Below, one piece after another: positions 13,404-60,432 of a stretch of 64,000 nucleotides of DNA. Source of the stretch: Alphaproteobacteria bacterium (GTDB taxonomy: Bacteria; Pseudomonadota; Alphaproteobacteria; RF32; CAG-239); NCBI GenBank assembly GCA_045221335.1, contig JBGUWS010000014.1, positions 70,261 through 134,260 on the forward strand, written 5' to 3'. A model generated the notes under the pieces. The model saw only the letters and a list, made by a program, of their open reading frames with translations, was not told where the DNA came from and made no database searches. Made by a program: the position numbers and the translations under genes. The first letter of the stretch is position 1; each line of letters opens with the position of its first letter.

Positions 13404-16400
13404 ATGTGTAAGTATCGTCGTTCTGAAATAGGTTTGTTAAACAGAAGATATCGCAGTGTATTAAAAAAATGCCTGCTGATTAATTGCGGATTGCTCCTTG
13501 TTTCGTCTCCTGTACAAGCTGAAGTATTACCGGTTTTAGGCGATAGCAGTGTAGTTGAATATCAACTGGGTAGCGAAGATGATTACACGTTCAAACTTAT
13601 CGAAAATGGTGTCACCACGTATTATAAGATAAATATTTTAACCGACCTGCTGGATAGCAACCATATTTTGTGGGATAAGGTAGCATCCGCTGGTGAAAAT
13701 ACAATAGGTATAACTCTGCCGCATAATGGTACCGGCACAGAAACGATGTACTTAAAATACTCATATGATGGTAGTGAATGGGGAGCAAGTGTCAGTAACT
13801 TTAAGGATAATACAGTTAGAGCAGCAGCTACGGCTTCCTCTTATACACCCGATAATCCTTTTCCTTTAACTGGTATAACAGATACACAAAAGAAAGTCCT
13901 ATCAGGATTGTACACATATGATAATAAGGTTTACGAAGGAAACTATGTAACCCCGATTGTGCGTCAAAATAGAAGCGGTGGTACAATTTATGCTGCGTTG
14001 TATGGAACAGCACTAAGCAACGTAGTAAATCCAAATAATGAAACTGATTTACATAAAGATCTTGGTGATCTAACTGCTGATTTTATTAATAACTATGTGG
14101 ATGCGGTATCCACAAATTTATCAAGTACAGGTGCAGTTGTCAAGGTGGGTTCATCCTCTAATCTATACATATACGGTGGAGCAGCAGGTAACCCCGGTGC
14201 GATTACGGTGCCATCCGGCGGTGATTTAATAACATCTGATCCTAGTTCTATTCAAAGCTTAACAGGAGAATTTATTGGGAACTATATTACCGGAACGGCC
14301 ATTGTTGCAGATGATGATACAGCAACTTCATTACTGGGAGCTTATGGCGGAGCTCTGGGTAATAGAGGAATAATCGGAACCATTACCGGCTCTTTTATAA
14401 ATAACTACATTGATGTAACAGCAACCGGCGATGGAGCTACAGCCTATGGCTTTGGTGGTGCAGTTTATAACCATGGCACAATCACAACACTTAATGCCAA
14501 TTTCTTATCAAATTATGCAGATCATGGTGGTGCAATTTATAATGATGGAGAAATCACCACCTTATCAGGTAATTTTATTGGTAATAGGGCAACCAACGGA
14601 AATGGTGGCGCAATACATGGTGCCGGCTTTGAAAACATTAATGGTGACTTTATTTCAAATGAAGCCAATGGTAATGGCGGTGCTATCAGTGTAGAGGCTG
14701 AAAACGGCGGGATAATAGAAAATCTACGCGGAGAATTTATAGCCAATCAGGCACTCGATGGTAATGGTGGCGCTTTGTTTATCGGTAATCAATCCGGTGT
14801 TGAACAAGTAACAGGTAATTTTATTGGCAATATAGCAAACTCGGATGGTGGTGCTATCTATATAGAAGACACAGACGAAGCAACGAACATTGTTGCTGAT
14901 ACAGCAGATGTTCTGTTTAGTAATAATACAGCTAATGACAGATATAATGATATCTATCTAAAAGATGTTGAAAATTTCGGATTAAACGCAGCATCAAACC
15001 ATACCATTACATTTAATGGTACAATCGAAGGCGAGACCACTTCAGATACTGTTTTTGCCAATATCAATAGAGGTTCATCAAATACCGGTGGAACTTACGC
15101 TTTTAATAACGAAGTTTCAGGTTTAGGACTGCGTGTTTACAATGGTGCACAAATTAAATTAGGTGTTCATGAGCAGTCAGATGGGACAACAACCGATGGA
15201 TATCTCAATTTGGAAAGTTTTGAAAATGATGCCCAAGGCGGTGAAATCGATGCTATAAACGGAGTATACCGCACGCAGATTTTGGGTAGCAATGTGAAAT
15301 TATTATCAGACTTGGATTATAAAATTGATATTTTAGTTGAAAATAATCTGGTAACCATTTCTGATATGATACAAATTGCATCAACAGACCAGGATTCCGT
15401 TGGTTCCATCAATTTGACAGATATTTTATTTGCCGGTGCATCAGAGGGTGAAGCACTTTATTTTGAAGGCAAGAAACAGATTATCAATAATACCGGTAGC
15501 AATGCTGTTACGCTAAAATTAGCTCAAGAATACACGGCCACAGCTGAAAGCCTTGTAACCGATAAGCTATCTATTGATTCTAAGGATATAAATTGGGATA
15601 CAGGTGTTTATCTCTATGATGAAAGGACTGTAGATTCTAAAAAGTTGGTAGCTGTCGAAGGAGAAAGCGGAATTGTTGACAGCATTGAATGGGTAGACAA
15701 TGGTTCCTTAAGCCCGACAGAAGAAAATATCCGCAATTATGATGCCTTAGTATTCTTGCATCAGACGGATATGTTTGGTACCAATGAAAAGACATTCACG
15801 GATAATTCAACCGGAACCTATAACTTAACAGAAAATCTTGGAGAAACTTATGGCTCTCTATCTGTTATAGGACAAGGTGCAGATGCATCAACATTGAATA
15901 TGAACGGTCATCAAGGTTTTGAAATTGGTGACGGGGCAACCGTAAAATTAGACGGTATATCGGTTAATAGTAATAAAGCCGTGACCTTAGCAGAAGTATC
16001 TGAAGGCGGCTTGCTAAAATTGAATAATGTAGAAATTGCAAGCCCGAAACTGTTTATAACCAATGATGAAAATTTAGAACTAAGCGGTTCTAATACACTT
16101 AATGGTATGATAGATGGTGAGGGAACAACAACAGTTACCGGCGGAGAAACAACCCTAAATGCAGATATCATTCAAGATAATTTGATTATTGCTGACGGTA
16201 CATTAATAACCAATGCAGATAATCTGGAAATTGCTAATGATATTCAAAATGACGGAACATTAACACTAACCGGTGGTAATTTAAGTCAAGGTGTTACCAA
16301 AGCAACAACCGGTGAAGGTGAAGTAACATTAGAAAATAATGTTGTTTTAGCTAATGGTGGTTCTATTTCTGATAATAAATTGGATCTCAAAGATCATAAA

Positions 16401-42400: not shown

Positions 42401-45400
42401 AATAGTAACCAATACGATAGATGGGGGTATAATTTATAACCAATCACAAATTAATTCTATTTCAGGAAAGATTATAAATAATTACATTGAATCTAAAAAT
42501 GCCACATTAAACGGGGGCGTATTATTTAATGATGCGTCTGGTAATATCTTAATGACATCGGATATAGAAAATAACTATGTCAAAGGGGCGGATATTACAA
42601 ACTCTGATGGTGGAATAATTTATAATAGTGGAACATTAACGCTTTCCGATGTTTCTCTTAAAGATAATGCAACAAATTTAGAAAACACAATTTCAAACAG
42701 TGGCAATCTTTCTATAATTGCGAATAATAAGGATGTCGTATTTGCCGGAAACAAAGTCGGTGCAACCATTACTAGAAACGAAACAACAGGAGAAGTTTCC
42801 GTTACGGGTGGAGATGCTTTAGATATAAGAAACAGTGGTAGCAGTGTGCTGAACTTATTTGCTAAAACAGGAAAATCGATAATTTTTGAAGGTGCAATTA
42901 CTGACGATGATAATCAAGCAACAGCAAATATTGGCGGAACATACGATGATAATGGAACAGAAAAAAATTATGAAGGTTCAGTAATATTTAAAAATACAGT
43001 CGCTCTCTCAACATTAAACATCAAAAATAATGCAAATATAATATTAGGAGTGAATGGCACACAATTTGGTTTATTGAATTTAGGAACTTTAACCAATGAT
43101 GCAAAAAATGGATCGATTAATAGTATAAATAATCATATTGAAAATCACCAAATAACGAAAGCCACATTAAATTCAGCCTTAAATATAGGAATAGATATGA
43201 GTGTGGCAACCGATCTAACAACAGAAGCGGATACATTTACTTTAGGTGCGGATAGCACGGGTACATTTAATATCGCAGATCTAAATATGCTCGGGGATGG
43301 TATAGCTGCTTTTAAGGCCTCCACAGAATCTAAAGAAATCATACAGAAAATATTAAATAATGCAAACAGCAACACCATATTAACTCTTTCTAATACGGTT
43401 AAATCCGCTTATGAAGAAGAAATAGCCGATGAACTTGTAGAAGACGTTGATGAAATTACTGGATCAACCGTTAAATATAATGAAAAGTATGGAGAATATG
43501 AACTTACACGTCAAAGAGCGTTGGAAGTATCAATTGTCGGTTCATCACAAGGATTGGCTGATGCAATCAGATGGGCAATAACAGTAACCGATAGTGATAA
43601 AATATATAAAGACGATACTTTGCATCTGATAAATATTGCATCAGGTACAAATAGGGTATTCGATTTTGATGGTACGACAAACACCTTTAATGTAACGGAA
43701 AATACAGGCACAACAGCTGTTGGTAAATTAACAATATTAGGTACGCAAAATGGTACTGCGTACTCAACAATAGATGCTGACGGGCACAGTTTGTTTGATA
43801 TAACGACCTCAGGGGCAGCCGTTGATATACAGAATACAAAAATTAAAAATGCAGAATACATAGCTGATGTCACAAGTGGTAATGTATTGACTTTAAGTAA
43901 CGTGATTATTGATAATACAAATACCAAAGGTATAACCGGAACAGGAACAACGGTCATATCAGGCGGTAAAACGGTATTAAGTGCAGAATCCAACCAAAAT
44001 TTATTGACAATTAATTCAAATGGTGAGCTAGAAAACAATGCAAAGTTCACATTAGCAGATAAAATTTCAAATTCAGGTACACTGACTTCAATTGCCGATA
44101 ATATAGTAACGGAAAATGGTATAGAAAATGAAGGAGTAATAAACTTTATCGGGGGAGAGAATTTAAATAATATCAGTGGTACAAACGGAACAGTTAATTT
44201 TTCTGATACATCAATAAATTCAGGAACAATAGAACAAAAAATAATCACTAATAGCAACAGTTTGACATCTGATGCCGGAACCTTGAAAGCATCAGCAGGC
44301 ATCCAAAATACAGGGAATTTATATCTGACAGGTGGTATAACACAGAGTATAATTTCAGGCGAAAATGGAACTATACATACCATGGGATCAGTAACAATTG
44401 GAAAAGCCATAAATAACAATGTGTTAAGTCTAGATAGTGGAAGTACAAAATTAGGTATAACAGATCTTTCAACAGCCCAAAAATTAGTCATAAACGGGGG
44501 AGATTTAAATCTACAGTATTTATCAAGTACAGAAGATTATAATTTAGGAAACGTTGAAATCTTGGAAGATATGGGACTGGGTATTGATGTCGATTTAACA
44601 GGAAACACCGCAATAAAGAAAGTTGATACAATATCTGCAACAACAGTTTCTGGCTCTAAAAAAATATATATCAATAACTTAAATATAACGGTTCCTAGTC
44701 CCGGAGATGAAGCCCCAACATATTCAAAAGTTGCAGATAATAATCTAAAAGACAGTGTAGATTTAGGCGATAATGCCAAAACACACGTTAACAATATATC
44801 ACAAAATGGTTTTATGATAACTTATGAAAAAGATACAGAAGGAGAAAATACGGGTGGTTTCTTACATCTGACCTACGCGGATCTGGTAACGGCAGCTCGT
44901 GCAACAACAAGATCAAGAATATATGTTATGGGCAGTGCTGATGAGGATGTTGTCAGCCAGTTAGACGAACAGGGTGGAACAGGAATAACAGATAATAATC
45001 ATTTGTTTGGAGGTGTATCTTTAAGTGTAAACGGTACAGGCATTCAATCAATAATTGGTAGTGGTACGACCGGTGGAATACAGTTAGCTGGAACACAAAC
45101 TTTAAGCTTAAATAACATTAAAGAATACACAGGGTTCTCAACGGGTATTACCAATTATGGTACGGTTAATGTCACAAATGTTGATTTTATTGGAAATACA
45201 ATAGATATAAATAATAATACAGTACTTAATTTGTATGGAACAGATGAGCTAAAAACAATAACAGGAGATACCGGTACAATTAATATTGCAAGTTATGTTG
45301 ATGGAGATAATCAAACCATTAATGCAGAAGTAACTTTTGCCACAGACGGAAATATTACTCAAAAAGATATAGTTATTGCAGAGAATAACGTCTTAGAAAA

Positions 45401-48400
45401 TAATGCTAATCTGACAATCTTAAATAAAATTTCCAATAATGGTACCATAACTTCAAAAGCAAATAACATAAGCACCACAAATGGTATTATAAATAATGGT
45501 ATACTCAATTTAACTGGCGGAGAGAACACAAATGCAATAACTGGTACAGATGGCGTTATTTACCTAACTAATACCGGAAGTAACAGTGCCTCAATTACCC
45601 AAAACAGTATAATTAATTCCGGAACATATACAAATAACGGTACAATCAATGGGTTATTTGATAATAGTAATGCAACGTTAGAAAATAATAGTGAAATTAG
45701 TTTAATAACCATGGATGGAGGTAACTTAAATAACGGCACAAACGGTACCATCCTGGCAACAGACTTAATCAGTGGTAATGTAATTAATGCCGGTTCTATA
45801 AACAACACCGGTCGCATGATAATAGAAAGCAGTGACACCTATACAAATACCGGCTATATTGCTAATTCCGGCGATTTAACAATTAAAGGAACAAAAGAAA
45901 TCGGACAGATTACAGGATTAGGGGACTCAACAACAGGAAATATTGTTTTGGGAGATACCTCGACAGATATTTCGACAGTTAACAAAGATATTGCTCAGCA
46001 AACAATAACCTTAAATAATGGAACGCTCAAATTTGCTGCCACAGGTTCTTTAACAGATAATGTTGCATTTATTGGTAACAACGGTACTTTGGATACTCAA
46101 AATAGCACAATAAATACAATATCTCTTGGTGCGGTCACATTAAATAGTAACATTATGTGGGCAATAGACGCTGATTTAGCAAATATGACAGCAGATAATG
46201 TAACCGGCAACGCAAATCCATCCGGTTCAGGAAAATTAGTAATTAATGCAATAAACCTTCTTTCGGACGGTAATTATAAATATATAGAAACCAAAGTTGC
46301 AGATAATAATCTAAAAGGTATTATTGCGTTAGCTTCAGATCAATTTATTGTTAATAATTTAGCTGGAAACGGAAGTTACCTTGTTACTTATCAAGCAAAA
46401 ACGGATGGTGGATATTTAACCTTTGATAATTCTGATATGAATAACCTTGTTATTGCTGCACGAAAAGAAGGTAGTGTTGTTTACAGTATGTCTCAAAATG
46501 AAAGTATCGAAACAGATTTAGCAGCTATTCCCGACGATATAACAAATGCTATAGGTAACCAAATAGCCGATGATTATACAATTAATGGCAATGGTCATAG
46601 CATTGATGGTGCCAACAAAGGTGGTATAATAACTTCTGCAACACAAGTTTTAACATTAAATAATATTAGTGAAGTTAAAGATTTTTCAGGGAATGCAATT
46701 ACGAATGCAGGTACACTAAATATCAATGCGCAAACAACAGATACAGTATTTAACAGCACAGCAGGCATCAAAAATACGGGAGATTTAATCTTAAATGCCG
46801 CAGAAGGCCAAAAAATAACAATTGCCGGAGCAATAACCGATGACACTGTTACTAAAGGGGTAACAACCGTCAAAGGAGATGGAATTACCAATATAAATAA
46901 TAGTATTACTCAAGATAAATTGCTCATTGAATCAGGCACCGTCAATGTTTCTGCCTCAAATTTGAATATAGATGAGTTCATACAAAATGACAGTATTCTA
47001 AATTTAGATGAAGGAATATTAAGTTCAATCATTAAGGGTAATAATGGAACAACAAATATTGTAGGAGAAGTTACTAATAACGCGTCAATCACTCAAAATG
47101 AAATAACTATTGAGGAGACTGCCAAACTGACGACCAATGCCAGTGATATAACCAGTGTAAGCGGTATAGATAACAACGGTACATTAGAGTGGATAGGTTC
47201 AGGAGAAAACAACAATATTATTTTAAGCAGCAATAATGAGGGTATAATAGAAGTTAAAGGCACTGTTCAAAATAATCAAAGCGTGACGCAAAATAAGATT
47301 ATAATAGCCGGTAACAATGCGGAACTAATTTCTAATGCTGATAATTTAAGTACGATTGAGGGAATTGAAAATAACAGTCTTTTAACTTTAACAGGCGGTC
47401 AGAATACCAATAAAATTGATGGTACAGGTAAGCTTGTTATTAAGACAGATAATCAAGTAGAAAATGAAGCGTTGATAAAACAAAAACAAATTACGGTAGA
47501 AGAAGGAACATTGATAAGTGATGTTGCCAATTTAGTAACAACAGAGAATATAAAAGTTTCCGACTTGTTGCGTTTAACCGGAACAGGTGATAATACAAAT
47601 CGAATTATAGGTAACGGTACGACAGAAATTGCGGGAACATTGACAACTTCAAACACAATCAGTTCTAACTTAGCCATTTCAGGAACATTAACAACTTCAG
47701 CTGATAAACTGGATATAGCATCAAAGAGCTTAAAAGGCGCCGGAGGAACATTAGACTTAAGCGTTAATGATAAATATGCAGAGGTGTTAACAGTAAAAGA
47801 GCTTGATCTAAACGAGGGTAATCTTAATTTGATAATAGATGTTGACCTTGCTAACAAGCAAGCTGATCAATTAAATGTAACAAGCATCTCCGGGTCAAAT
47901 AAATTAGTTATAAATGGCTTTAATCTTATAAGTGATGCACAAGAGAATTTACCAATTACAACAACAGTATTAACCGTAAATGACACATCAGAAGCCGAAA
48001 AACTAAGCCAGAATGTAGAGTTACAGGGTGCCCCGGTAACAATCCAAGGTGAAATTCCTGAATATAGCTACCTGGTTTCATATATTGTAAAAGATTTAAC
48101 AGGTAATTTACAATTTGAGTACGCAAATCTGGCAACAGCAATTATTTTTGATGCAGAGCAAAAAGTTTATACAATGGCCAACGAGGAAAGCTTAAGCGAA
48201 GAAAAAGAAATGCAAGGAAAGAATTTAAGCATTTGCGGTAACGGGAACGCCATTACGGGAGACGGAACAAATAACGGTATCAGAATTGGAAATGATCAAA
48301 CATTATCAATTAATGATGTCAACAGTATGCAAGAATTTGATCAAGCCATTGTAAATGATGGTGGTACAGTTAACCTTAAAAATGTAAGTTTCACAAATAA

Positions 48401-50438
48401 CACGGTAGATGTTAATAACAATAGCATATTAAATTTAGAAGGAAATAATGTACTACAAGACGGCATTATCGGAGATAATGGTAAAACAAACATTATTTCA
48501 GGCGAAACAACACTTTCAGGCGAAACAACGCAAGAAACAATTACCGTTTCTGATGCAACATTAAATAATCAAGGAATTATCAGTGCTGCTATCAATAACG
48601 CCGGTACAATTAATAATGAAAACGAACTTAAAATGAACGGCACATCAGTAAATACAGGTAAGATTAGTGGAAATGGCACTTTAACAGTCAATGGAACTCT
48701 AGAAAACACCGAAGATACAGCTTCTATTGTTCAAGATAAAGTACAGATTACGGAAAACGGCGAATTAACATCAGATAATGACAAAATCAGCGCATATATC
48801 GTTAATGACGGTATCTTCAATATGAGCGGTGCGGAAAATAATAATATCGTGGACGGAACAGGAATTGTTAATATTAACTCCAGTATGAGGCTTAATGAAC
48901 AAATAGGAGGAACAAACACGATAAACGTCAATGAAGGTGTATTAACCTTTGCTGATAATGAAGCTTTAGGGAGCAATGTTAAATTAAACGCCAACAAAGG
49001 TAGTTCTATAGACGTCGAAAATAATCAGATGAGCGTAGATCAGGTGGTATTTAAAGAAGGCTCAACCTTAAAATTAAAAGTAAATAGTCTTTCTGATTTT
49101 GGTTCGATTATAGCAAATACAATAAATGTCGAGCAAGGAGCTAATCTGTTTGCTGTTCTAGGGCAGGGATTGATTGAAGTCGGTCAGGAAGGAAGAATTC
49201 AGCTCTTAACAGCTAATAACAGTGATTTTAATAACTTTAGTGACAGTTTTGAAAATAACATGTACCGTTTTGAAAAAGACGGCAAAAATGGTGCATACAT
49301 CATTTCACAAGCCAGAACAGCAGAGGATGTCCTAAAAGAAGCAAATGCCAACAAGGATATTGTTGGTGCTGGACACGCTTGGATAGATGGTTCTCAGTTC
49401 CCGGATGAAAATAGTCAGGAAGTTGCAGATAAACTAACAGAATTAGCACAGACAGATGCCCATAAGCTTATAAAGGCATTAAAAGGTCTTGCACCTAACG
49501 ATGCCCCGATAGTAAAAACCTTAGCAATTGAACGGGCCTCTTATCTGTCAGATATGTTGCAAAATCATATTTATAACCGTTCAGAAGAACAATCCGCACA
49601 AGGTCTCTCATCTAATATTTCAGCACTGGATGCATCAGTTTGGATAAAGACATATGCCGCACGTTCTACCATAGCAGCAGACGATAATGCCGGAGGATTT
49701 AATATCAACCGCCAGGGAGCCGTATTAGGCATAGATAAGAAGGTAAATTCAGATACCTTAGTCGGTATGGGTTATGGTGCGGATACAACAAAAGCAAAAT
49801 CACATGATCACAATGATAAGGTACAAACCCATAGTTTGTTTGCTTATACGCGATATAAGCCAAATGATTGGTACATGGAAAGCTTAGCGGCATACAGCCA
49901 ATCTCAATATAATGAAACAAAGCAAAGTGTTTCAACCATCCGTGCAAAATATGATGTAAAAGACCTATTCTTTAAGGTAGATAACGGTTATGAGTTTAAT
50001 ATAAAAGATGCAATTATAACACCGGAATTGAGCTTAAGATATCATTATATAAAACGAGACGGATATAAAGATAGTGCAGGCCAAAAAGTTGATGCAAATA
50101 ATCTACAGGTCTTCACACCTGTGGTCGGTGTAAAAGCTTCTACAGAATTTGAGATAGATGAAAATAAACTCTCAAGGAAAGCAACCGTAAGGCCGGAAGT
50201 TTATGTTGGGGCAGGATATGATGTCAAATCAGATAATGAAAACTCCTTTGTAAGCTTGCCTAACGGAGAATCTTACGTTTATCATGGCAATCAATTAGAT
50301 AAGTTCTTTATAGAAACAAAAGCCGGTGTCAAAGCAAGTTTCACGGATGATGTTGACGTAGGTCTCTGGTATCTTGGAAATTACCGCGGAAATTACCAAT
50401 CTCACGCAGGAATGGTCGAGCTGAAAGTAAGATTTTAA
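39432..50438 (+). CDS. Giant type Va autotransporter (3668 aa) with Pmp/POMP repeats, reiterated ~38-aa and ~130-aa passenger modules, and C-terminal beta-barrel
   Basis: Signal peptide (LLLGVLANVSYTYA). Many FxxN/GGAI-type repeats and periodic (I/L)SG(D/N)I(S/T)NN...YGG(I/M)IYN units. Four copies of a ~130-aa DVDL... module. C-terminal ~300 aa paralogous to the first autotransporter's translocator, ending ...VELKVRF. Confidence 0.85.
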   Translation: MMKVKYKKVFKLTLLLGVLANVSYTYAAEQYVDDYNSLIAAISGAQDGDIIILNNSIEVTGALSSINKNITIDGQGLYGIYSSSLGGFTVSAGKNVTFKNIGQATVNLETGEVTYVEHSGLQGFHKSYTAALRNNGTLTLDNVVFYGNDGANGHGRAMYNSSSGTILSIKGKFLNNTNGSGTLANYGNIAYVKADFVGNSGGQHGGAILNNKGAKIQEIRDSNFIANSSARSGGAIRNLDGANEVTIYDSLFRFNNSRQGGAIKNSDESKAIIYNSLFDRNYAIYDSPDSPAASRPGGGAISNTDGKVYITDSQFTNNAAENNGGAILSDGLLYIYAKEKDVEFKNNKSLATISNAGANATVSGGVYNDLYLLKNAEINANAGKNIIFNGSVVNAVNTVVLSLNNDASIQGGNYIFNNEVTNGIFNIYNGAAVKFGTYNQVDGSVSYGKLNGVSFSNDTKGGTIDFQNNHIDDQVLTDLTLNSDIDIKLDVDLVNGISDYFSANTYTGNGKLNIVGINILSDNPIDLATKVSNSVLKDAITLSIATVDGPSLSYSILYDTSQNDGGYLRFSSGEMTNLVIVNRAEAKHRFYSLGSDENIAADIAEIGDGSTSIGEMGGVTGTIFTINGNSDYSINGENYAEITVKSGKTLNVDNVGSLEANGDVKAAWQGFKGTLFSVSSGTLNFTGDNVIANNTAIDKESLISNNGGTITVSDGSLNILNNSYHASLINNTNGTIGDFNTLIKSNLVNTGTGSLYGLIYNNAGSGKTAKIGELSGEISNNVITNSNGNLYGGIIYNYSKGTAEIDKITALFQGNQISTSALYGGLIRNQAEGGAVKIGDITGDIKENTLAFKNDTYGAIISNKATTKNAEIGNISGNITNNTINMSGNKSLYGIIQNEGNSGGTAKILGISGDISNNSINGNNNNSLLGGMIYNCAKSANAEIGEISGDIKNNSFKMGSMEGSIISNKNTSGYDAIIDAISGNIEENMIIVTNTIDGGIIYNQSQINSISGKIINNYIESKNATLNGGVLFNDASGNILMTSDIENNYVKGADITNSDGGIIYNSGTLTLSDVSLKDNATNLENTISNSGNLSIIANNKDVVFAGNKVGATITRNETTGEVSVTGGDALDIRNSGSSVLNLFAKTGKSIIFEGAITDDDNQATANIGGTYDDNGTEKNYEGSVIFKNTVALSTLNIKNNANIILGVNGTQFGLLNLGTLTNDAKNGSINSINNHIENHQITKATLNSALNIGIDMSVATDLTTEADTFTLGADSTGTFNIADLNMLGDGIAAFKASTESKEIIQKILNNANSNTILTLSNTVKSAYEEEIADELVEDVDEITGSTVKYNEKYGEYELTRQRALEVSIVGSSQGLADAIRWAITVTDSDKIYKDDTLHLINIASGTNRVFDFDGTTNTFNVTENTGTTAVGKLTILGTQNGTAYSTIDADGHSLFDITTSGAAVDIQNTKIKNAEYIADVTSGNVLTLSNVIIDNTNTKGITGTGTTVISGGKTVLSAESNQNLLTINSNGELENNAKFTLADKISNSGTLTSIADNIVTENGIENEGVINFIGGENLNNISGTNGTVNFSDTSINSGTIEQKIITNSNSLTSDAGTLKASAGIQNTGNLYLTGGITQSIISGENGTIHTMGSVTIGKAINNNVLSLDSGSTKLGITDLSTAQKLVINGGDLNLQYLSSTEDYNLGNVEILEDMGLGIDVDLTGNTAIKKVDTISATTVSGSKKIYINNLNITVPSPGDEAPTYSKVADNNLKDSVDLGDNAKTHVNNISQNGFMITYEKDTEGENTGGFLHLTYADLVTAARATTRSRIYVMGSADEDVVSQLDEQGGTGITDNNHLFGGVSLSVNGTGIQSIIGSGTTGGIQLAGTQTLSLNNIKEYTGFSTGITNYGTVNVTNVDFIGNTIDINNNTVLNLYGTDELKTITGDTGTINIASYVDGDNQTINAEVTFATDGNITQKDIVIAENNVLENNANLTILNKISNNGTITSKANNISTTNGIINNGILNLTGGENTNAITGTDGVIYLTNTGSNSASITQNSIINSGTYTNNGTINGLFDNSNATLENNSEISLITMDGGNLNNGTNGTILATDLISGNVINAGSINNTGRMIIESSDTYTNTGYIANSGDLTIKGTKEIGQITGLGDSTTGNIVLGDTSTDISTVNKDIAQQTITLNNGTLKFAATGSLTDNVAFIGNNGTLDTQNSTINTISLGAVTLNSNIMWAIDADLANMTADNVTGNANPSGSGKLVINAINLLSDGNYKYIETKVADNNLKGIIALASDQFIVNNLAGNGSYLVTYQAKTDGGYLTFDNSDMNNLVIAARKEGSVVYSMSQNESIETDLAAIPDDITNAIGNQIADDYTINGNGHSIDGANKGGIITSATQVLTLNNISEVKDFSGNAITNAGTLNINAQTTDTVFNSTAGIKNTGDLILNAAEGQKITIAGAITDDTVTKGVTTVKGDGITNINNSITQDKLLIESGTVNVSASNLNIDEFIQNDSILNLDEGILSSIIKGNNGTTNIVGEVTNNASITQNEITIEETAKLTTNASDITSVSGIDNNGTLEWIGSGENNNIILSSNNEGIIEVKGTVQNNQSVTQNKIIIAGNNAELISNADNLSTIEGIENNSLLTLTGGQNTNKIDGTGKLVIKTDNQVENEALIKQKQITVEEGTLISDVANLVTTENIKVSDLLRLTGTGDNTNRIIGNGTTEIAGTLTTSNTISSNLAISGTLTTSADKLDIASKSLKGAGGTLDLSVNDKYAEVLTVKELDLNEGNLNLIIDVDLANKQADQLNVTSISGSNKLVINGFNLISDAQENLPITTTVLTVNDTSEAEKLSQNVELQGAPVTIQGEIPEYSYLVSYIVKDLTGNLQFEYANLATAIIFDAEQKVYTMANEESLSEEKEMQGKNLSICGNGNAITGDGTNNGIRIGNDQTLSINDVNSMQEFDQAIVNDGGTVNLKNVSFTNNTVDVNNNSILNLEGNNVLQDGIIGDNGKTNIISGETTLSGETTQETITVSDATLNNQGIISAAINNAGTINNENELKMNGTSVNTGKISGNGTLTVNGTLENTEDTASIVQDKVQITENGELTSDNDKISAYIVNDGIFNMSGAENNNIVDGTGIVNINSSMRLNEQIGGTNTINVNEGVLTFADNEALGSNVKLNANKGSSIDVENNQMSVDQVVFKEGSTLKLKVNSLSDFGSIIANTINVEQGANLFAVLGQGLIEVGQEGRIQLLTANNSDFNNFSDSFENNMYRFEKDGKNGAYIISQARTAEDVLKEANANKDIVGAGHAWIDGSQFPDENSQEVADKLTELAQTDAHKLIKALKGLAPNDAPIVKTLAIERASYLSDMLQNHIYNRSEEQSAQGLSSNISALDASVWIKTYAARSTIAADDNAGGFNINRQGAVLGIDKKVNSDTLVGMGYGADTTKAKSHDHNDKVQTHSLFAYTRYKPNDWYMESLAAYSQSQYNETKQSVSTIRAKYDVKDLFFKVDNGYEFNIKDAIITPELSLRYHYIKRDGYKDSAGQKVDANNLQVFTPVVGVKASTEFEIDENKLSRKATVRPEVYVGAGYDVKSDNENSFVSLPNGESYVYHGNQLDKFFIETKAGVKASFTDDVDVGLWYLGNYRGNYQSHAGMVELKVRF

Positions 50439-50440
50439 AA
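50390..50440 (+). repeat. Direct repeat copy A (3' end of the autotransporter CDS); partner at 51213-51263
   Basis: 51 bp with 3 mismatches versus copy B. Both copies encode NYQSHAGMVELKVRF* (differences synonymous). Confidence 0.8.
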
Positions 50441-50589
50441 TAAATTATTTCGATCATTAAAATAAAAGATAACGATTTTTTATGTTTTTGAGTGTTACGC
50501 ATCTCATCTTGATATTTTAATTGACTAATTAGCGAAAAGATGCCACCATTTCAGAAAAGTGTGTATCGGCAAATAGAACGGAGGCAAAT

Positions 50590-51213
50590 ATGGCAATCGG
50601 TAAAGCACTTAAAAACTTATGGAATTATTTATTTAGTTCTGATGACGAAAATCAGGTCACGCCAGCAGATCCGCAAGAAGATAAAGCCGCAACGAAAAAG
50701 ATATATACATATAAAGATATAGAATTTATTCATGATAACTATAGCGGTATGACTTATGCAAATATGGATTTTAACAATGGCTACCATATGTATATTTCGG
50801 TTGAAGATTACAGTGATGACTTAGAAAACCATGAATCACCAGCCGGATATGAAATAACAATCTTTGATAGCAAAGGCAGAAGGAACAGTACTTGTTTAAA
50901 TAAAGACGGAAAAGATCTTGTTGCATATAACAAAAGTGCCGTGACAACATTGATGAAACAAATTCAACAATTGGATGAAAAAGGGCATATATCCGCAACG
51001 CATGATGCAACGAGGATTCAGGCCAGAAAACAATATTTATTGAAAAAGCAAAAGGATAGAAAAGCATACAAAAAGAGCCATCCGGAAGATGATGTTTCCG
51101 GCGTTATACTTGCTGATGAAATTGCGAAAAGTATTATTTCGGGGAGCGAAAAAAGAAAGATTACTCCTGCAGTTGCCCGTGAATATAAAGCGAAATTGTC
51201 GCGTCATCAATAA
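50590..51213 (+). CDS. Hypothetical protein (207 aa) with acidic N-terminal half and Lys-rich C-terminal half, inserted between duplicated autotransporter 3' ends
   Basis: Strong GGAGG RBS 6 nt upstream. No recognisable domain. Confidence 0.5.
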   Translation: MAIGKALKNLWNYLFSSDDENQVTPADPQEDKAATKKIYTYKDIEFIHDNYSGMTYANMDFNNGYHMYISVEDYSDDLENHESPAGYEITIFDSKGRRNSTCLNKDGKDLVAYNKSAVTTLMKQIQQLDEKGHISATHDATRIQARKQYLLKKQKDRKAYKKSHPEDDVSGVILADEIAKSIISGSEKRKITPAVAREYKAKLSRHQ

Positions 51214-51263
51214 AATTACCAATCTCATGCTGGAATGGTCGAGCTGAAAGTAAGATTTTAAAA
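51213..51263 (+). repeat. Direct repeat copy B (orphan autotransporter 3' end remnant)
   Basis: See copy A. It begins exactly at the stop codon of the 207-aa ORF. Confidence 0.8.
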
Positions 51264-51295
51264 CAAAAAAACCTGTTAAGTATCCAGAAGTATCC

Positions 51296-51464
51296 GCAAT
51301 TCTCGAGCTGAAATTTTTGGATTTTTTGAGCCGGTTAACTTCAGATTGTTATGAATCCGAAGTTGATTTTATGAGATTTTTTGTAAAGCTGGAGTGTGCT
51401 TGCAATACACGAGCCAATCATTTGATTATGGAGATATTTTAAGGTTACGGGGTGGATTTCAGAT
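51296..51464. repeat. Two tandem degenerate copies (R1a, R1b) of an ~85-bp intergenic repeat family
   Basis: Shared core ggagtgNgcttgca....cgag.taaaatttt....tttttaac..atgggtg....gaacca.a.gt.gat..aaat..cagc; related copies at 53023-53100 and 53723-53807. R1b overlaps the last codons of the GT-C gene. Confidence 0.55.
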
Positions 51465-52905: not shown

Positions 52906-53022
52906 ACGTGGCCCTCGGTTAATGGTATAATCTTCTTTATTCTAAATAGAATGTGTTTAATAAAATGTAAAATCATTACTGAAAAACATATTAAATAGAC
53001 ATTATAACTGACATAAAAGAGC

Positions 53023-53100
53023 GCTTTGCGAGATAAAATTTGATTGTTTTTAACTTATGGGTGTTATGAACCAAAAGTTGATTATTTAAAATAATCAGCT
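53023..53100. repeat. Copy R2 of the ~85-bp repeat family
   Basis: gcgagataaaatttgattgtttttaacttatgggtgttatgaaccaaaagttgattatttaaaataatcagc. Confidence 0.55.
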
Positions 53101-53674: not shown

Positions 53675-53722
53675 AAAATATAACAAAAAAACGCCATTTC
53701 TGACGATTTTTGAACTGTGGTC

Positions 53723-53807
53723 GGAGTGAGCTTGCAGTTCTCGAGATAAAATTTTGCATGTTTTTAACTTATGGGTGTTAAGAACCAGAGGTGGAATTAA
53801 AATCAGC
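53723..53807. repeat. Copy R3 of the ~85-bp repeat family
   Basis: ggagtgagcttgcagttctcgagataaaattttgcatgtttttaacttatgggtgttaagaaccagaggtggaattaaaatcagc. Confidence 0.55.
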
Positions 53808-53872
53808 AAAAGCTTGCGGTTTATGATAAAAAATCCTAAATATTAGATATAAATGATTAAAGAGAACTTGTT

Positions 53873-54571
53873 ATGACATTAAATAAATTAGATATTCTTT
53901 CTAAAATGGCATATTTTGCAAAATGCAAAAAAACAGCTATAGTACGTATATTAGAATTTCTCATACCACTAAATGACGAACAATCTGTATTGATGAATAT
54001 TTTTTATAATGCCTATTTTACTTACTGGTTAGGGTTAGTAGATTATTTGATAAAAGATGTTTCTTTTATTAAGCAAGAAGATATAGAAAATATAGTAGGT
54101 TCTAAAGATAATTATTATTACCTTAGAAATCTAAGAAATGCGGTTATTCATAGGGCTGAGGACTTAGCTGATAAAGGAACTGTTATTAATAATACAGATA
54201 TTATAACCCCATTTTCTCCTATAGATGTTATGGATCCATTTGGAAAGAAAAAATACCAACCATTTTATAACAATTTAATACAAATCATATTAAAATGTGA
54301 AGAGATAAATGAAATATGCATAAAATTGATAAAACAATATAATTTGACAGATTATCCTGATCTTACTAAAGAAGAATTTATGGATAGGTGTAATCGTGAT
54401 CCTTATATTTCATCGTATGTAAAAACGGATGAAATATCCGAAAAATCTTGGCAACATTATTATAGCATTAAAAATGATATGAAAAAAGAAAATGTAAAAA
54501 AGATTTTATCTTATTTTGAAACTCTTAATTTATTTCAAGATGCGATAATAAAAGATAATAAGATAGATTAA
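53873..54571 (+). CDS. Hypothetical protein with Rx4H (HEPN-like) motif, candidate Abi-type RNase
   Basis: 232 aa, predicted all-helical, ~26% GC. Motif YYYLRNLRNAVIHRAED fits HEPN Rx4-6H. A paralogous motif occurs in the 248-aa protein at 60432. No other recognisable domain. Confidence 0.4.
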   Translation: MTLNKLDILSKMAYFAKCKKTAIVRILEFLIPLNDEQSVLMNIFYNAYFTYWLGLVDYLIKDVSFIKQEDIENIVGSKDNYYYLRNLRNAVIHRAEDLADKGTVINNTDIITPFSPIDVMDPFGKKKYQPFYNNLIQIILKCEEINEICIKLIKQYNLTDYPDLTKEEFMDRCNRDPYISSYVKTDEISEKSWQHYYSIKNDMKKENVKKILSYFETLNLFQDAIIKDNKID

Positions 54572-54806
54572 ATATTAGCAATAATTTTGGAGTGACTAAA
54601 ATCAAAGGCTAATTTAACTTTTATTTTTCGATAATAGAAGTTTTTCTTCCCTGTATAAGCGATTTTGGTTTTGACATAGGTTTGATTATAAAAGATAGAT
54701 TCGGTTATTATAGGGTAATTTTTGATAAGTTAATAATCGTATGAATTTATTATTTCTAAACTATTGGTGTTTTATTATATCGTAGTTTAATGGAGTGATT
54801 TATCTT

Positions 54807-55919
54807 ATGAAACCAGATATACAAAAAATATTTAGCCAATATGGAATAACCAATAAAATGCATAACGATGCATATGATTGGCAGAAAAAATATTGGGAAA
54901 TTAGTAATGAGATAAGTGGTAAGAATGAATGGGAGGACATTTGTATTGGATTTTTCGCTTATATTACACTATGGACGTTAATATTGTTTGGTTTAGCATT
55001 TCTTGATGATAAATCAAATATTTCTCAAGACTTGCTTGCTTTCCTTATTATTGTAGTTTTATTAAATATATTTTTCTACTTAATGGGAAAGCAAGAAAAT
55101 AAGAAAAAAGAAGAATATAAACATAAAATAGAAAGCCATAAATTAGAAAAAGTTCACCATTCTGAATATGAATACAAAGAACAGAAACTAGCAAGCGATT
55201 ATGAAACTGAATTAAAAAATCTTCAAAGTAAAATATTTAGAAAAAGAGTTAGTGAAACATTTAAGGATAATTTACAAAAATATAATGATTTCATAGATAC
55301 CTGTAGTTATATAAACCATTATCTTGTATTTGCTCACATAAATACTTATGAACATAGAGAATACGCTAAAAAACGAGGTTATTCTCTTGTTACAAATAAT
55401 TATTCTTCTTTAAGTAAAAAAATACTTCCTAAAATTGAAGAAGATTATTCTTCATCTAAGCCTATAGAAAGCAAAAGTATTAAAAGTAAATTTAATCCTC
55501 AAAAAATAGATTGGCTTGAACTTAATAAATCTAATGCCAAATTAGGAGAATATGGGGAAAGCATAATTATAGATTTGGAAAAGGAATATCTGATAGAAAA
55601 CGGATTAAAAGATTTATCTGAAAAAATAGAATGGGTATCACAGACCAAAGGGGACGGAGCAGGATATGATATTTTATCATATGATACAGGCGGAAATTGT
55701 AAATATATAGAAGTTAAAACTACATGTGTGTCGGAAAACGAACCTTTTTATGTAAGTGATAATGAATTGAATTTTATTAAAACACATTTGGATAATTATT
55801 TTATATATCGTTTGTATATCGATAAAAATTCCAATACAGTAAAATTGAGAGTATTTAATTCAAGCGAATTTTTAAACTTTGCTCTTCGTCCTGTATCGTA
55901 TAAAGTTATTTTAAATTAA
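54807..55919 (+). CDS. Membrane-anchored protein with C-terminal DUF3883-like PD-(D/E)xK nuclease domain
   Basis: Two N-terminal TM helices, a K/E-rich coiled-coil linker, and a C-terminal ~130 aa with LGEYGESI, GYDILSYD, IEVKTT and SDNELNFIK. These match, as I recall it, the DUF3883 restriction-endonuclease-like consensus (D...E-V-K). Start moved to ATG 54807 (GGAG RBS). Confidence 0.55.
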   Translation: MKPDIQKIFSQYGITNKMHNDAYDWQKKYWEISNEISGKNEWEDICIGFFAYITLWTLILFGLAFLDDKSNISQDLLAFLIIVVLLNIFFYLMGKQENKKKEEYKHKIESHKLEKVHHSEYEYKEQKLASDYETELKNLQSKIFRKRVSETFKDNLQKYNDFIDTCSYINHYLVFAHINTYEHREYAKKRGYSLVTNNYSSLSKKILPKIEEDYSSSKPIESKSIKSKFNPQKIDWLELNKSNAKLGEYGESIIIDLEKEYLIENGLKDLSEKIEWVSQTKGDGAGYDILSYDTGGNCKYIEVKTTCVSENEPFYVSDNELNFIKTHLDNYFIYRLYIDKNSNTVKLRVFNSSEFLNFALRPVSYKVILN

Positions 55920-56183
55920 CAAATAAAATTTTAGTGCTGTAATCTATAACTCCTTGATTTTCTTATCTTCTCATCCTAAAAAGTTCGAAGATTATTTGGG
56001 GTATGGCTTATTTTATATCAAACATTCGAACTCGCCGAAAGCTATTCCGCATCCGGAAAAGATTTCCAAAGTAACGCATAAACCACTAGAGGTGCCCTTT
56101 GTATATCCCTTAGTATTTGCGCGACTAAATTTGAGATAAGCTTATCTAACACTAGTGTTATTATTGTGTCGGCTCCATACTTT

Positions 56184-56203
56184 AAGGCTTAGAGCCTTTT
56201 TTA
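56184..56203 (+). terminator. Short hairpin + T-run (aaggct-tag-agcctttttt) upstream of fic
   Basis: 6-bp stem followed by T6. It shares the 19-nt string agagccttttttatgaaaa with the terminator after fic. Confidence 0.4.
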
Positions 56204-56295
56204 TGAAAAAAATGTCAATATTCGGGAAATTTTACTTGCTTTTTCGGGAATTATTCGGTAATATTTCGGTAAAGAATAGAGAAAAGGAACATAAA

Positions 56296-57354: not shown

Positions 57355-57377
57355 AACCTATCGATTCTTTTTTTTCT

Positions 57378-57410
57378 GGCTCTATGTCTTATTGCATAGA
57401 GCCTTTTTTA
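57378..57410 (+). terminator. Rho-independent terminator after fic (ggctctatg-tcttattg-catagagcc + T6)
   Basis: Perfect 9-bp stem and a T-run. Confidence 0.75.
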
Positions 57411-57500
57411 TGAAAATTGGTAAATAAGCTCAATTATCACTTGCTTTTCAGAGTGTTTAGGGTAAAATCGCCATTATATTGTAACTTTTGGGACTTTTAG

Positions 57501-59987
57501 ATGACGATAACACCGGAAGAAAAAGCAAGAGAAAAAATAGATGAACAACTGATAAATGCCGGTTGGATAATACAGAACCGTGAGGATTTTGACCGCACAG
57601 CTAGTTTAGGCGTGGCTGTTCGCGAGTTTTTGATGGACGATAACACAGAAGCTGACTATCTTTTGTTTGTAGATGGCAAAGCCTGCGGTGTTATAGAAGC
57701 AAAGAAAGCCGGTGTTGCTTTAAGTGGTGTTGAAAATCAGTCGCACGGATATGCTTGTCATCTACCGGAATATGTTAAAAATTGGCAGATGCCGTTGCCT
57801 TTTATTTACGAGAGCACTGGTGATGAGACTTTCTTTTGTGACGGGCGAGATAAAATCTGCCGTTCTCGTCGCATTTTTGCCTTTCACTCACCTCAATCAT
57901 TGCTAAATATGCTTGAAGAGGCAAGCACTTTGCGCAATCGCTTACAAAATATGCCTATACTGGAAAAAGGCTCTTTGCGTGATTGTCAATTTGAAGCCAT
58001 TGAAGGCTTAGAAAAATCATTAGCGGAAGGCAATCAAAAAGCACTTATTCAAATGGCTACCGGTGCCGGAAAAACTTTTACGGCTTGTAATTTTTCATAT
58101 CGCTTGCTTAAATATGCCGGAGCGAAGCGTATTTTATTCTTGGTAGACCGCAATAATCTCGGCAAACAGACCAAAAAAGAGTTTGAAAACTTTCGCCTTC
58201 CTGATGTAAATCGCCTGTTTCCGGAAGTTTATATTGCTCAGCACTTGCAACATAATAAGGTTGATTCTGATGCCAAAGTTGTGATTACCACCATTCAACG
58301 GCTTTATTCCATGTTGTGCGGTGAAGAAGATTATGATGAGGCGGACGAAGATGCTTCCGCTTACGAGCTCGGTTCAATGGGTGCGCCTAAAGAAGTTAAT
58401 TATAATTCTGCTCTTCCGCCGGATTATTTCGATTTTATCATAACTGATGAATGTCACCGCAGTATTTACGGCGATTGGCGGCAGGTTTTGGAATATTTTG
58501 ATGCTTTCATTATCGGTTTGACAGCTACGCCATCTAAGCAAACCTTTGGTTATTTTAACCGCAACATTGTTGCTGAATATCCGTATGAACGCTCGGTTGC
58601 TGATGGTGTTAATGTAGATTATCAGGTTTTACGCATTAAAACCAAAATCAGCGAAGATGGTGGCAAAATTGACAAATCTTTTCCTGTGCCATTGCGTAAT
58701 AAGAAAAGCCGTAAGATAACTTATGAGCAGCTGGACGAAGATTTAGAGTATAAAAAGAATGACTTAGACCGTTCTGTCCTCGTGCCAAATCAAATTCGCA
58801 CCATTATGGAGTGTTATAAAAATTCGCTTTATACCGAGCTGTTTCCGGAACGTGAGCCGAATTTTGCGTGGACACCGAAAACGCTTATTTTTGCCAAAGA
58901 TGACAATCATGCCGAAGAGATTGTCCGCATCACAAGAGAAGTTTTCGGGCAAGGCAATGATTTTTGCAAAAAGATTACCTATAACGTTACCGGTGAAAAG
59001 CCGGAAGAACTGATTAAGCAGTTTCGTGTTTCCCCTCTGCCGCGTATTGCCGTAACGGTGGATATGATTGCCACCGGCACGGATATTAAGCCTTTGGAAG
59101 TGGTAATGTTTTTGCGTGATGTTCGCTCATCGCTTTATTATGAGCAGATGAAAGGTCGTGGCGTTCGTTCCATTAATGATACAGACTTAAAGCAGGTAAC
59201 ACCGAATGCCGAAGGTAAAAGTTTCTTTTATTTGATTGATGCCGTTGGTGTAACCGAGAGTAAAAAGACCGCTTCACAACCATTGGAGCGCAAACGCTCG
59301 GTTTCGTTAAAGAAGCTTTTAGAGCAAGTAGCACAAGGCAAAACTGATGATGACACATTGAGCACGCTTGCCGGACGCATTGTCAATATAGAGCGCAACT
59401 TAAATGACGAAGAAAAAGACAAGATAAAAGCTCTAACCGGAGGCAAGCTGTTGCATGAAATTGCCGGCAATATTCTTGATGCCATAGAGCCGGACAAGCT
59501 TGAGGGCAAAACCGCCAAAGAGATAGAAAAAATCAAAGATGATGCGGTTAAACCGTTTAATAAATCAAGTTTGCGGCAAACTTTGCTTGATATGAGTGCC
59601 AAAACCGGCATTTACATTGATGAACTGGCGCAAGATGAAGTTATTTCTGCGGATATCAACGGAGAAAAAGCTAAAAATATCATCACTTCGTTTAAGGAAT
59701 TTATAGAAGCCAATAAAGATGAAATTGACGCACTTTCTATCATTTATAATGTGCAATATGGCAAGAGAAACCTGACTTATGCCAATATCCGTGAACTGGC
59801 AGAAAAAATGCGTGAGGCACGTCCGCCTTTGGCACCGATAGAAATTTGGCGTGCGTTTGAGCTATTAGAAAAAGATAAAGTCCAACATGTTAAAAATCCG
59901 GTGCGGTTGCTGACCAACTTGGTGCAACTGGTGCGTTTTGCCATCGGGCAAGATGATAAATTGGAAGAGTTTGATAAACGAGTTTAA
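57501..59987 (+). CDS. hsdR: Type I restriction enzyme R subunit (N-terminal PD-(D/E)xK nuclease + SF2 helicase + HsdR-type C-terminal helical region), possibly 3'-truncated
   Basis: HSDR_N-like D...EAK (DYLLFVDGKACGVIEAKK). Helicase motifs I QMATGAGKTFTA, II ITDECHRS, III GLTATP, VI QMKGRGVRS. The stop lies exactly where out-of-frame hsdM-homologous sequence begins. Confidence 0.75.
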   Translation: MTITPEEKAREKIDEQLINAGWIIQNREDFDRTASLGVAVREFLMDDNTEADYLLFVDGKACGVIEAKKAGVALSGVENQSHGYACHLPEYVKNWQMPLPFIYESTGDETFFCDGRDKICRSRRIFAFHSPQSLLNMLEEASTLRNRLQNMPILEKGSLRDCQFEAIEGLEKSLAEGNQKALIQMATGAGKTFTACNFSYRLLKYAGAKRILFLVDRNNLGKQTKKEFENFRLPDVNRLFPEVYIAQHLQHNKVDSDAKVVITTIQRLYSMLCGEEDYDEADEDASAYELGSMGAPKEVNYNSALPPDYFDFIITDECHRSIYGDWRQVLEYFDAFIIGLTATPSKQTFGYFNRNIVAEYPYERSVADGVNVDYQVLRIKTKISEDGGKIDKSFPVPLRNKKSRKITYEQLDEDLEYKKNDLDRSVLVPNQIRTIMECYKNSLYTELFPEREPNFAWTPKTLIFAKDDNHAEEIVRITREVFGQGNDFCKKITYNVTGEKPEELIKQFRVSPLPRIAVTVDMIATGTDIKPLEVVMFLRDVRSSLYYEQMKGRGVRSINDTDLKQVTPNAEGKSFFYLIDAVGVTESKKTASQPLERKRSVSLKKLLEQVAQGKTDDDTLSTLAGRIVNIERNLNDEEKDKIKALTGGKLLHEIAGNILDAIEPDKLEGKTAKEIEKIKDDAVKPFNKSSLRQTLLDMSAKTGIYIDELAQDEVISADINGEKAKNIITSFKEFIEANKDEIDALSIIYNVQYGKRNLTYANIRELAEKMREARPPLAPIEIWRAFELLEKDKVQHVKNPVRLLTNLVQLVRFAIGQDDKLEEFDKRV

Positions 59988-60432
59988 TCTGCATACGGTG
60001 TTGCGCTTGCCTACCGGTATTTTTTATGCGCAGGGTGTTAAGGCTAATGTTATTTTCTTTGATAAATATCCGCCACTTGATAAAGGACACCGCACAAATG
60101 ATGTGTGGTTCTATGACTTACGCACCAATATTAATTTAAGCTTGGTTACAAACTCTTTGAATGACAGCCATTTAGCAGACTTTATTAAGTGCTATAATGC
60201 AGATAATATTATGGCGAGGACAGAGAGCGAACGCTTTAAGAAGTTTACTTATGACGAAATTATCAAACGCGATAAGGTAAGCCTTGATATTACTTGGCTC
60301 AAAGACGAGAGTTTAGAGAGTCTTGAAAATCTGCCGGAACCGGAAATTTTGGCAGATGAAATCGTTGATAATCTGGAAACAGCACTGGATTCATTCAAAA
60401 ACGTGCTGACAGAGTTACAGAAAGCAGAGTAA
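59938..60432 (+). pseudogene. hsdM: Remnant of type I methyltransferase gene: C-terminal ~150 codons only, N-terminal catalytic domain deleted
   Basis: The translation from ~59980 (NLHTVLRLPTGIFYAQGVKANVIFFDK...VWFYDLRTN...SLDITWLKD...LPEPEILADE) closely matches the C-terminal region of EcoKI-type HsdM as I recall it. No SAM-binding or NPPY/F region is present upstream. Confidence 0.7.

Follow-up and report, generated by a model that had tools for sequence, protein, structure and literature searches.

Nucleases with a DUF3883 domain, now NOV_C in Pfam, are common defence effectors. The domain was placed in the PD-(D/E)xK superfamily by Steczkiewicz et al. 2012 (PMC3424549) and recognised as a novel restriction endonuclease domain by Anantharaman et al. 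2013 (PMC3710099). It is catalytic in the modification-dependent enzymes YenY4I and McaZI, and that of YenY4I supports Mn2+-dependent cleavage of modified DNA in vitro (PMC6765204). HmaA, which carries a DUF3883 annotation, depends on the nickase activity of its C-terminal PD-(D/E)xK domain for defence against phage T4 (PMC11232893). PD-T4-1 is a single-gene DUF3883 system that protects E. coli against T-even phages and Bas21 (PMC9519451; bioRxiv 2025.07.10.664194). It is predicted to form a dimer around a core of nuclease domains, and no membrane anchor is mentioned (bioRxiv 2025.07.10.664194). Here we describe a gene for a 370-amino-acid NOV_C nuclease with a membrane anchor, found at positions 54807–55919 of the plus strand in a 64,000-nucleotide stretch of bacterial DNA (hereafter the window; contig JBGUWS010000014.1).

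The closest architectural parallel is SNIPE (PD-lambda-1), which consists of a transmembrane (TM) segment, a DUF4041 domain and a GIY-YIG nuclease (PMC13190303). As a constitutive inner-membrane protein, SNIPE cuts phage DNA while it is being injected, and it defends directly rather than by abortive infection (Abi). Without its TM segment it is toxic and cuts the DNA of the host nucleoid. Two TM helices occur in 7% of SNIPE homologs; across SNIPE homologs in general, conservation is highest in the nuclease, and the N-terminus varies (PMC13190303). SNIPE, Zorya and Kiwa are classed together in a 2026 review as DNA-targeting systems located at the membrane (PMC12904381).

Our searches of the literature and of family libraries returned no description of a membrane-anchored DUF3883 protein, and a literature search on membrane-anchored anti-phage nucleases returned nothing on DUF3883. 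GenBank labels a near-identical protein "DUF3883 domain-containing protein". The domain call itself is routine. The novelty is a conserved membrane-tethered architecture, previously undescribed, for a known defence nuclease domain, and the definition of this family and its parallel with SNIPE are what is worth an experiment. Below we document the identity, proposed catalytic residues and fold of the nuclease domain, the anchor and its predicted topology, the coherence of the family, the absence of a partner and the mobility of the gene.

The nuclease, its membrane anchor and its family

The gene was listed as an open reading frame (ORF) running from a GTG at 54795 to 55919 on the plus strand, the strand of all features of the gene and its flanks given below. 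We prefer the ATG at 54807 because a ribosome-binding site (GGAG, 54792–54795) lies ahead of it and because the N-termini of all close homologs read MK.DIQKIF. The coding sequence is thus 54807–55919, stop codon included. Given the base composition of this stretch (25.5% GC), 370 open codons would arise by chance with P = 3.8e-17, and the longest open run in 1000 shuffles of the gene was 107 codons. The same gene and start had been called in an earlier annotation made by eye (the first-pass annotation), and the chance probability, the ribosome-binding site and the homolog N-termini all bear it out.

The C-terminal part of the protein (residues 233–370, 55503–55916) is a NOV_C/DUF3883 PD-(D/E)xK nuclease domain. 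Pfam family PF13020 (NOV_C, formerly DUF3883) matched residues 250–344 over positions 1–87 of its 91-position profile, scoring 70.2 bits where the cutoff is 22.1 (E=1.6e-19). Among 5.8 billion proteins, 330 were matched at E<=1e-3, and the 120 best of these all carried PF13020. NCBIfam and PHROGs searches returned nothing useful. In an alignment of 121 sequences, G250, E251, E258, G286, D288, I289, S291, I301, E302, V303, K304, E320 and R335 were invariant. The motifs on which the first-pass annotation had based its call are all present: GYDILS at 286–291, IEVKTT at 301–306 and SDNELNFIK at 317–325. We propose from the alignment that E251/E258 on the first helix, D288 on the second strand and E302 with K304 on the third strand form an E...D...ExK signature and are the catalytic residues.

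The AlphaFold2 model built with this alignment had a mean predicted local distance difference test score (pLDDT) of 81 overall and of 87–97 over residues 230–370. The nuclease domain comprises, in order, a helix (236–264), a short strand (275–276), strands 289–292 and 298–306, a helix (318–326) and strands 331–339 and 344–351. This is an alpha-beta-beta-beta-alpha-beta-beta topology, which contains the alpha-beta-beta-beta-alpha-beta core of the fold, and the invariant residues of the proposed signature lie on helix 236–264 and strands 289–292 and 298–306. Because a profile match and the core fold were both found, either of whose absence would have spoken against it, the PD-(D/E)xK assignment of the first-pass annotation stands. 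Pfam revealed no PUA, DUF3427, MrcB_N or other modification-reading domain in the protein.

The N-terminal part is a membrane module. A cytoplasmic helical segment (residues 1–44, 54807–54938; model helices 5–11 and 16–37) is followed by TM helix 1 (residues 45–66, 54939–55004; Kyte-Doolittle maximum 2.18; model helix 41–66), a short acidic extracytoplasmic loop, DDKSNISQD (residues 67–75, 55005–55031, from hydropathy and charge), and TM helix 2 (residues 76–95, 55032–55091; maximum 2.72), with which a long model helix, 74–143, begins. Two N-terminal TM helices had also been read by eye in the first-pass annotation. We analysed the charge of the flanks and the loop in 50 family members with two predicted TM helices, taking 15 residues on the N- and C-terminal sides. 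The loops had a median length of 7 residues (range 0–17). The mean number of lysines and arginines was 3.1 in the N-flank and 2.8 in the C-flank versus 0.74 in the loop, and the positive-inside rule for a hairpin with both ends inside (N-in/C-in) was obeyed by 50 of the 50 members. The nuclease is therefore predicted to lie in the cytoplasm, with almost nothing exposed outside.

Continuous with TM helix 2 in the model is a K/E-rich helix (residues 96–145, 55092–55241), 47% of whose residues are charged. The first-pass annotation had described a K/E-rich coiled coil here; the K/E-rich helix holds, whereas the coiled coil is not established because the best heptad register of residues 96–146 places hydrophobic residues at only 47% of a/d positions. 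A charged single helix or stalk is as likely as a coiled coil, and "charged helical stalk" is the safer name. Two further helices, 150–170 and 180–195, lie between the stalk and the linker. This central region (residues 146–195, 55242–55391) is conserved and holds the motifs (I/L)(F/Y)(R/K)KR...F and EYAKKR; K146, Y186 and R190 are invariant in an eight-sequence alignment (A5). The linker itself (residues 196–232, 55392–55502) is modelled with low confidence (pLDDT below 50 at residues 194–225) and is probably flexible.

The same architecture recurs in other bacteria. N-terminal TM segments were present in 15 of the 120 best matches. The central motif (I/L)(F/Y)(R/K)KR...F...L..(Y/F) and a second motif, Y..Y..KR, recur across phyla between stalk and linker, as in L017 (a Peregrinibacteria metagenome-assembled genome, MAG), in L031 and L037 (MAGs labelled Gammaproteobacteria) and in the proteins P0024, P0075 and P0091. 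A profile that we built from residues 1–232 only matched 84 clusters among 1.84 billion representative proteins at E<=1e-3; 54 of the 84 reached E<=1e-10, and several phyla are represented. NOV_C was present in 71 of the 84 (68 by motifs and 3 more by Pfam match); the others are short fragments or have no Pfam match, and every full-length member that we checked has NOV_C. Since no other effector domain was seen joined to the membrane and stalk module among these clusters, the module is, as far as is visible, dedicated to NOV_C. Across the family the nuclease part is the most conserved (mean identity to the window protein 0.49), while the other parts average 0.13–0.31. Searches of 72,556 plasmids, 50,697 phage records and IMG/VR matched the nuclease domain alone and never the membrane module. 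We regard the identity and architecture of the protein, a membrane-anchored NOV_C nuclease, as practically certain.

Neighbouring genes and mobility of the gene

As the first-pass annotation had noted, the nuclease gene begins 235 bp behind an ORF that ends at 54571, which we call the Rx4H gene, and lies upstream of fic. That annotation implied a link to both neighbours, which comparison of loci did not support: 99% and 80% identical copies of the nuclease gene sit behind a different, non-homologous upstream gene, and fic is absent there. Indeed, fic and hsdR adjoin the nuclease gene only in the window. The outer flanks differ from locus to locus as well. They hold housekeeping genes in L001, a DUF6291 protein, a large helicase and a WYL protein in L002–L004, and an SNase, a DUF2628 protein, a T5orf172 protein (PADLOC PDC-S57) and a resolvase in L005–L009.

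The upstream position itself is, in contrast, always occupied among the close homologs on contigs: a same-strand gene of 219–232 amino acids precedes the nuclease gene in every case, 160–235 bp ahead of it in the window, L001 and L005–L009. This arrangement raises the possibility of a two-gene system, in which the variable protein of about 220–230 amino acids would be a sensor, specificity or immunity partner that has diversified beyond recognition. The upstream genes are also low in GC (25–29% versus 34–36% for the background), and a conserved intergenic element of about 150 nucleotides stands ahead of the variable gene in all three types of loci (the window, L001 and L005–L009). However, the four upstream proteins show no detectable homology to one another (BLASTP E>0.09), and the same intergenic element also precedes an unrelated ORF of 165 amino acids. 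The distant members L017, L031 and L037 have no equivalent upstream gene and stand solo, and the same gene is missing at P0117, which directly follows a phage integrase, and at P0095, which lies between urocanase and amidohydrolase genes. Another distant member, P0091, adjoins N6_N4_Mtase-ResIII genes and a gene for a DUF2726 protein. The nuclease gene, moreover, keeps a conserved upstream region of its own, about 160–190 nucleotides long.

The Rx4H gene has an independent distribution. It has only nine homologs, sharing the invariant motif NYYY.RNLRN..HR.E; they occur after hsdS inside type I restriction-modification (R-M) operons or beside a large DEAD/MZB helicase, and a NOV_C gene was never seen next to any of the nine. 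It is an independent defence-island gene. We rejected a conserved upstream partner because the upstream proteins are unrelated and the Rx4H gene occurs elsewhere without a NOV_C gene. Similarly, we found no conserved adjacent cognate partner of the kind that defines toxin-antitoxin or two-gene Abi systems, and we consider a two-gene system highly improbable. Downstream of one Rx4H-gene homolog (L090, 5875–7083) we noted a 402-amino-acid protein with four predicted TM helices and without a Pfam or PADLOC match; it is unrelated to the NOV_C protein.

Comparison of DNA between loci showed that the conserved unit is 54618–56033 of the window, that is, the gene with about 190 bp of 5' and about 115 bp of 3' sequence. 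Over this unit, identity was 96.5% to L005–L009 and 85% to L001. The 5' flank (54618–54806) is kept between loci while the upstream coding sequence is swapped, and it probably holds the gene's own promoter and leader. A promoter-like TTGATT-18-TATTAT at 54682–54711 matches the consensus, though such sites are no commoner here than in shuffles. The 3' flank (55920–56033) travels with the gene and holds an element of about 70 nucleotides (55947–56013) that is repeated in related loci. Between the nuclease gene and fic lies a terminator-like hairpin with a T-run (56184–56207).

In L005, whose nuclease gene is the 99% identical one, the ~70-bp element was also seen on both sides of the T5orf172 gene (PDC-S57), at about 7661–7727 and 8580–8649. 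Since that gene is absent from the window, this arrangement suggests insertion or exchange of single defence genes between repeats.

Base composition points in the same direction as the exchange of flanks. GC content is 25.5% in the interval 54001–56000 of the window versus 33–41% on either side. The dip corresponds to the Rx4H and nuclease genes (25–26%, against 39–41% for fic and hsdR) and is consistent with recent horizontal acquisition. A 99% identical copy of the nuclease is present in a MAG from roe-deer abomasum labelled "Clostridia bacterium".

Described relatives and proposed mode of action

We compared the window protein with each described system to which it bears some likeness. PDC-S36 gave the best PADLOC score (E=3.8e-40), in a match that takes in the nuclease domain and the segment preceding it. 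PDC-S36 proteins are NOV_C proteins of about 280 amino acids, and only positions 131–253 of 280 match, short of near full-length homology; their soluble N-terminal domain is replaced in the window protein by the membrane module. The abundant NOV_C matches of about 277–292 amino acids are probably of the PDC-S36 type, judging from their length. A literature search on PDC-S36, Tiamat and NOV_C returned nothing relevant, and PDC-S36 is, to our knowledge, still a candidate system.

PD-T4-1 was also matched (model PDLC04021, E=6.9e-22, residues 214–369). Like the window protein, it is encoded by a single gene of about 380 amino acids with DUF3883/NOV_C in its C-terminal 100–140 residues. Homology does not, however, extend over the full length: only profile positions 218–377 of 383 align, and the N-terminal two thirds, including the first ~215–270 amino acids, are unrelated. 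The two PADLOC matches and the validated activity of PD-T4-1 (PMC9519451) make the defence role named in the first-pass annotation plausible.

TmtA (Tiamat) shares a C-terminal PD-(D/E)xK domain, to which the PADLOC TmtA models match at 4e-16. The match is confined to the C-terminal ends of the models (1250–1510 of 1538). HmaA and TmtA are large ATPase/helicase proteins, whereas the window protein is membrane-bound, about one quarter to one third of their size and devoid of ATPase or helicase domains in Pfam. The structural neighbours of the nuclease domain, the Hjc and RecU resolvases and the homing endonuclease I-Ssp6803I, share only 12–21% identity with it, have unrelated biology and are not membrane-anchored.

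YenY4I and McaZI (DUF3427-DUF3883) and the MrcB_N-NOV_C enzymes share the NOV_C catalytic domain with the window protein, at 40–48% identity over about 140 amino acids (P0007 and P0034, for example). The catalytic role of DUF3883 in the modification-dependent enzymes (PMC6765204) would suit an ordinary restriction-type or housekeeping membrane nuclease: a type IV-like enzyme, a processor of DNA in uptake or conjugation, or an inactive remnant. In favour of this reading, too, the NOV_C domain occurs on 1212 PLSDB plasmids, 863 of them conjugative, and some members of the membrane-anchored family lie among housekeeping genes. Yet the restriction enzymes are soluble and carry modification readers, and the window protein has no reader. 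Its catalytic residues are intact and invariant, and it is therefore not a remnant. The predicted topology has the nuclease facing the cytoplasm rather than the side of DNA uptake, and the patchy, mobile, low-GC distribution is typical of defence genes. An ordinary nuclease of this kind thus appears distinctly unlikely.

SNIPE resembles the window protein in overall plan: an N-terminal anchor, an elongated basic central helical region and a C-terminal cytoplasmic nuclease that is the most conserved part. The two differ in the anchor, which is a single-pass N-out helix in SNIPE and an N-in/C-in hairpin here. Neither DUF4041 nor GIY-YIG/T5orf172 was detected in the window protein (Pfam, E<=1), nor was there a PADLOC PD-Lambda-1 match (E<=1); of the features of SNIPE, it has the N-terminal anchor with the rest of the protein predicted to be cytoplasmic. 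The window protein is thus an analogue of SNIPE, not a homolog, and SNIPE is its best working analogue.

Because an intact NOV_C domain is carried by a mobile, low-GC, stand-alone gene and because NOV_C relatives are active, we infer that the protein is a DNase in DNA-targeting defence, a function we consider probable. We tentatively propose, with a confidence just short of even, that this one gene makes up a complete, horizontally mobile defence module encoding a membrane-tethered DNase that acts where DNA enters the cell. In the cytoplasmic membrane its product would form an N-in/C-in helical hairpin that exposes only a loop of about 9 residues on the outside. The charged stalk, the basic helical module and the flexible linker would hold the metal-dependent NOV_C DNase just beneath the membrane, and the conserved basic central helices are a candidate DNA-binding or partner-binding element. 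By analogy with SNIPE, the tether would keep a non-sequence-specific nuclease off the nucleoid and set it where foreign DNA arrives, such that phage or plasmid DNA would be nicked or cut as it enters or shortly thereafter. Discrimination between self and non-self would then be spatial, depending on the site of entry.

The first-pass annotation had instead favoured an Abi effector. In such a scheme the nuclease would be held inactive at the membrane until a late cue (membrane damage, a holin or a phage protein) released or activated it to degrade host and phage DNA without distinction, killing the infected cell. A single membrane-anchored protein with a probably non-specific nuclease, a flexible linker and no modification- or sequence-reading domain in Pfam would suit this scheme, and 12 of 21 new E. 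coli systems behaved as Abi (PMC9519451). In the same study, however, 11 systems had domains that bind or cleave DNA, and 7 of these provided direct immunity (PMC9519451), and SNIPE, the closest architectural analogue, also defends directly (PMC13190303). We could identify no protease site, antitoxin or trigger-binding domain in the window protein, and no computed result separates Abi from direct defence. The specific call of Abi thus goes beyond the data. Should the gene serve in defence, we would give a SNIPE-like direct mechanism an even chance, and Abi would be a possible but less than even outcome; taken by itself, the Abi scheme seems to us unlikely.

Several points weigh against a SNIPE-like defence at the site of DNA entry. 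The membrane-anchored family is known from its sequences, and the relatives that suggest an anti-phage role share only about 140 C-terminal residues with it. Because DUF4041 and GIY-YIG are absent, the analogy with SNIPE is one of architecture. Because the hairpin exposes almost nothing, there is no obvious outside surface for binding a receptor or the injection machinery. The topology derives from hydropathy and charge rules rather than from a dedicated predictor. A Foldseek comparison of the nuclease model with the PDB gave no significant match (best E-value 0.13), and sequence and profile searches of the PDB found no solved NOV_C structure. Finally, those members that lie among housekeeping genes have no defence genes beside them.

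DNA-entry defence by a tethered nuclease nevertheless makes clear predictions for a small, single-gene protein of 370 amino acids: it should localise to the membrane, its TM-deleted form should be toxic and D288, E302 and K304 should be essential. The membrane hairpin points to spatial confinement as one way in which a NOV_C nuclease could spare the host chromosome, and the family offers a second, unrelated test case for the mechanism established in SNIPE. We also entertain, as a rather doubtful extension, that evolution has at least twice confined a promiscuous nuclease to the membrane where DNA enters, the NOV_C family being the PD-(D/E)xK counterpart of SNIPE; from the cytoplasmic side, the hairpin and the basic stalk module might then recognise the injection apparatus or the DNA itself as it comes in. 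If this were true, location-based discrimination of self from non-self would be a general principle, independent of the nuclease fold, and would range over rumen Firmicutes, candidate-phyla-radiation bacteria (Peregrinibacteria), Bacteroidota and Proteobacteria. If the tethering idea fails, the gene is one more NOV_C defence candidate.

Further features of the island and the window

The nuclease gene belongs to a small defence island that also contains a SoFic-like Fic protein and a decayed type I R-M system and is followed by a tRNA-Gln gene. Fic carries a winged helix at its C-terminus and is matched by PADLOC SoFic at 2.4e-49; its NCBIfam SoFic score (61.6 bits) is far below the cutoff of 550. 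Its likely start is the ATG at 56296, not the GTG at 56155. A 52-nucleotide direct repeat (56158–56209 and 57365–57416) flanks fic on both sides and is terminator-like, with a GC hairpin and a T-run.

The decayed R-M system and the features behind it lie at 57501–61178 and 61425–61499. The hsdR gene (828 amino acids) breaks off inside its EcoEI_R_C domain, and it overlaps an ORF that corresponds to the C-terminal third of hsdM only (N6_Mtase, 199–295 of 311). Behind the hsdM fragment come a 248-amino-acid ORF without a Pfam match and then the tRNA-Gln gene, on the minus strand.

The intergenic element mentioned above spans about 60–150 nucleotides and has the core GAGATAAAATTTTG..TTTTTAACTTATGGGTGTTAWGAACCA; it contains an imperfect hairpin, in which some of the changes are compensatory. 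Copies lie at 53021–53090 and 53707–53859 of the window, with a weaker one near 51320, and at 5414–5593 of L005 and 5122–5274 of L001. They precede the 165-amino-acid ORF, the Rx4H gene and the non-homologous upstream genes of L001 and L005, an arrangement that resembles gene cassettes. As a structured RNA the element was rejected: its folding energy was no better than that of shuffles in 4 of 5 copies, and there was no Rfam match.

Upstream of the island, the window contains giant plus-strand ORFs at 13404–18824 (1806 amino acids), 32966–38428 (1820 amino acids) and 39432–50438 (3668 amino acids). The last looks, from its sequence, like an autotransporter adhesin, with a signal peptide, a repetitive passenger and a beta-barrel-like C-terminus. 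An autotransporter would imply a host with an outer membrane, although the nearest MAG bears a Clostridia label. The last 45 bp of this gene, stop codon included (50400–50444), are repeated with 93% identity at 51223–51267, 823 bp downstream. The two copies bracket a 207-amino-acid ORF (50590–51213) without a family match, which looks like an insertion or, alternatively, the repeat looks like a remnant of the 3' end of a second autotransporter gene.

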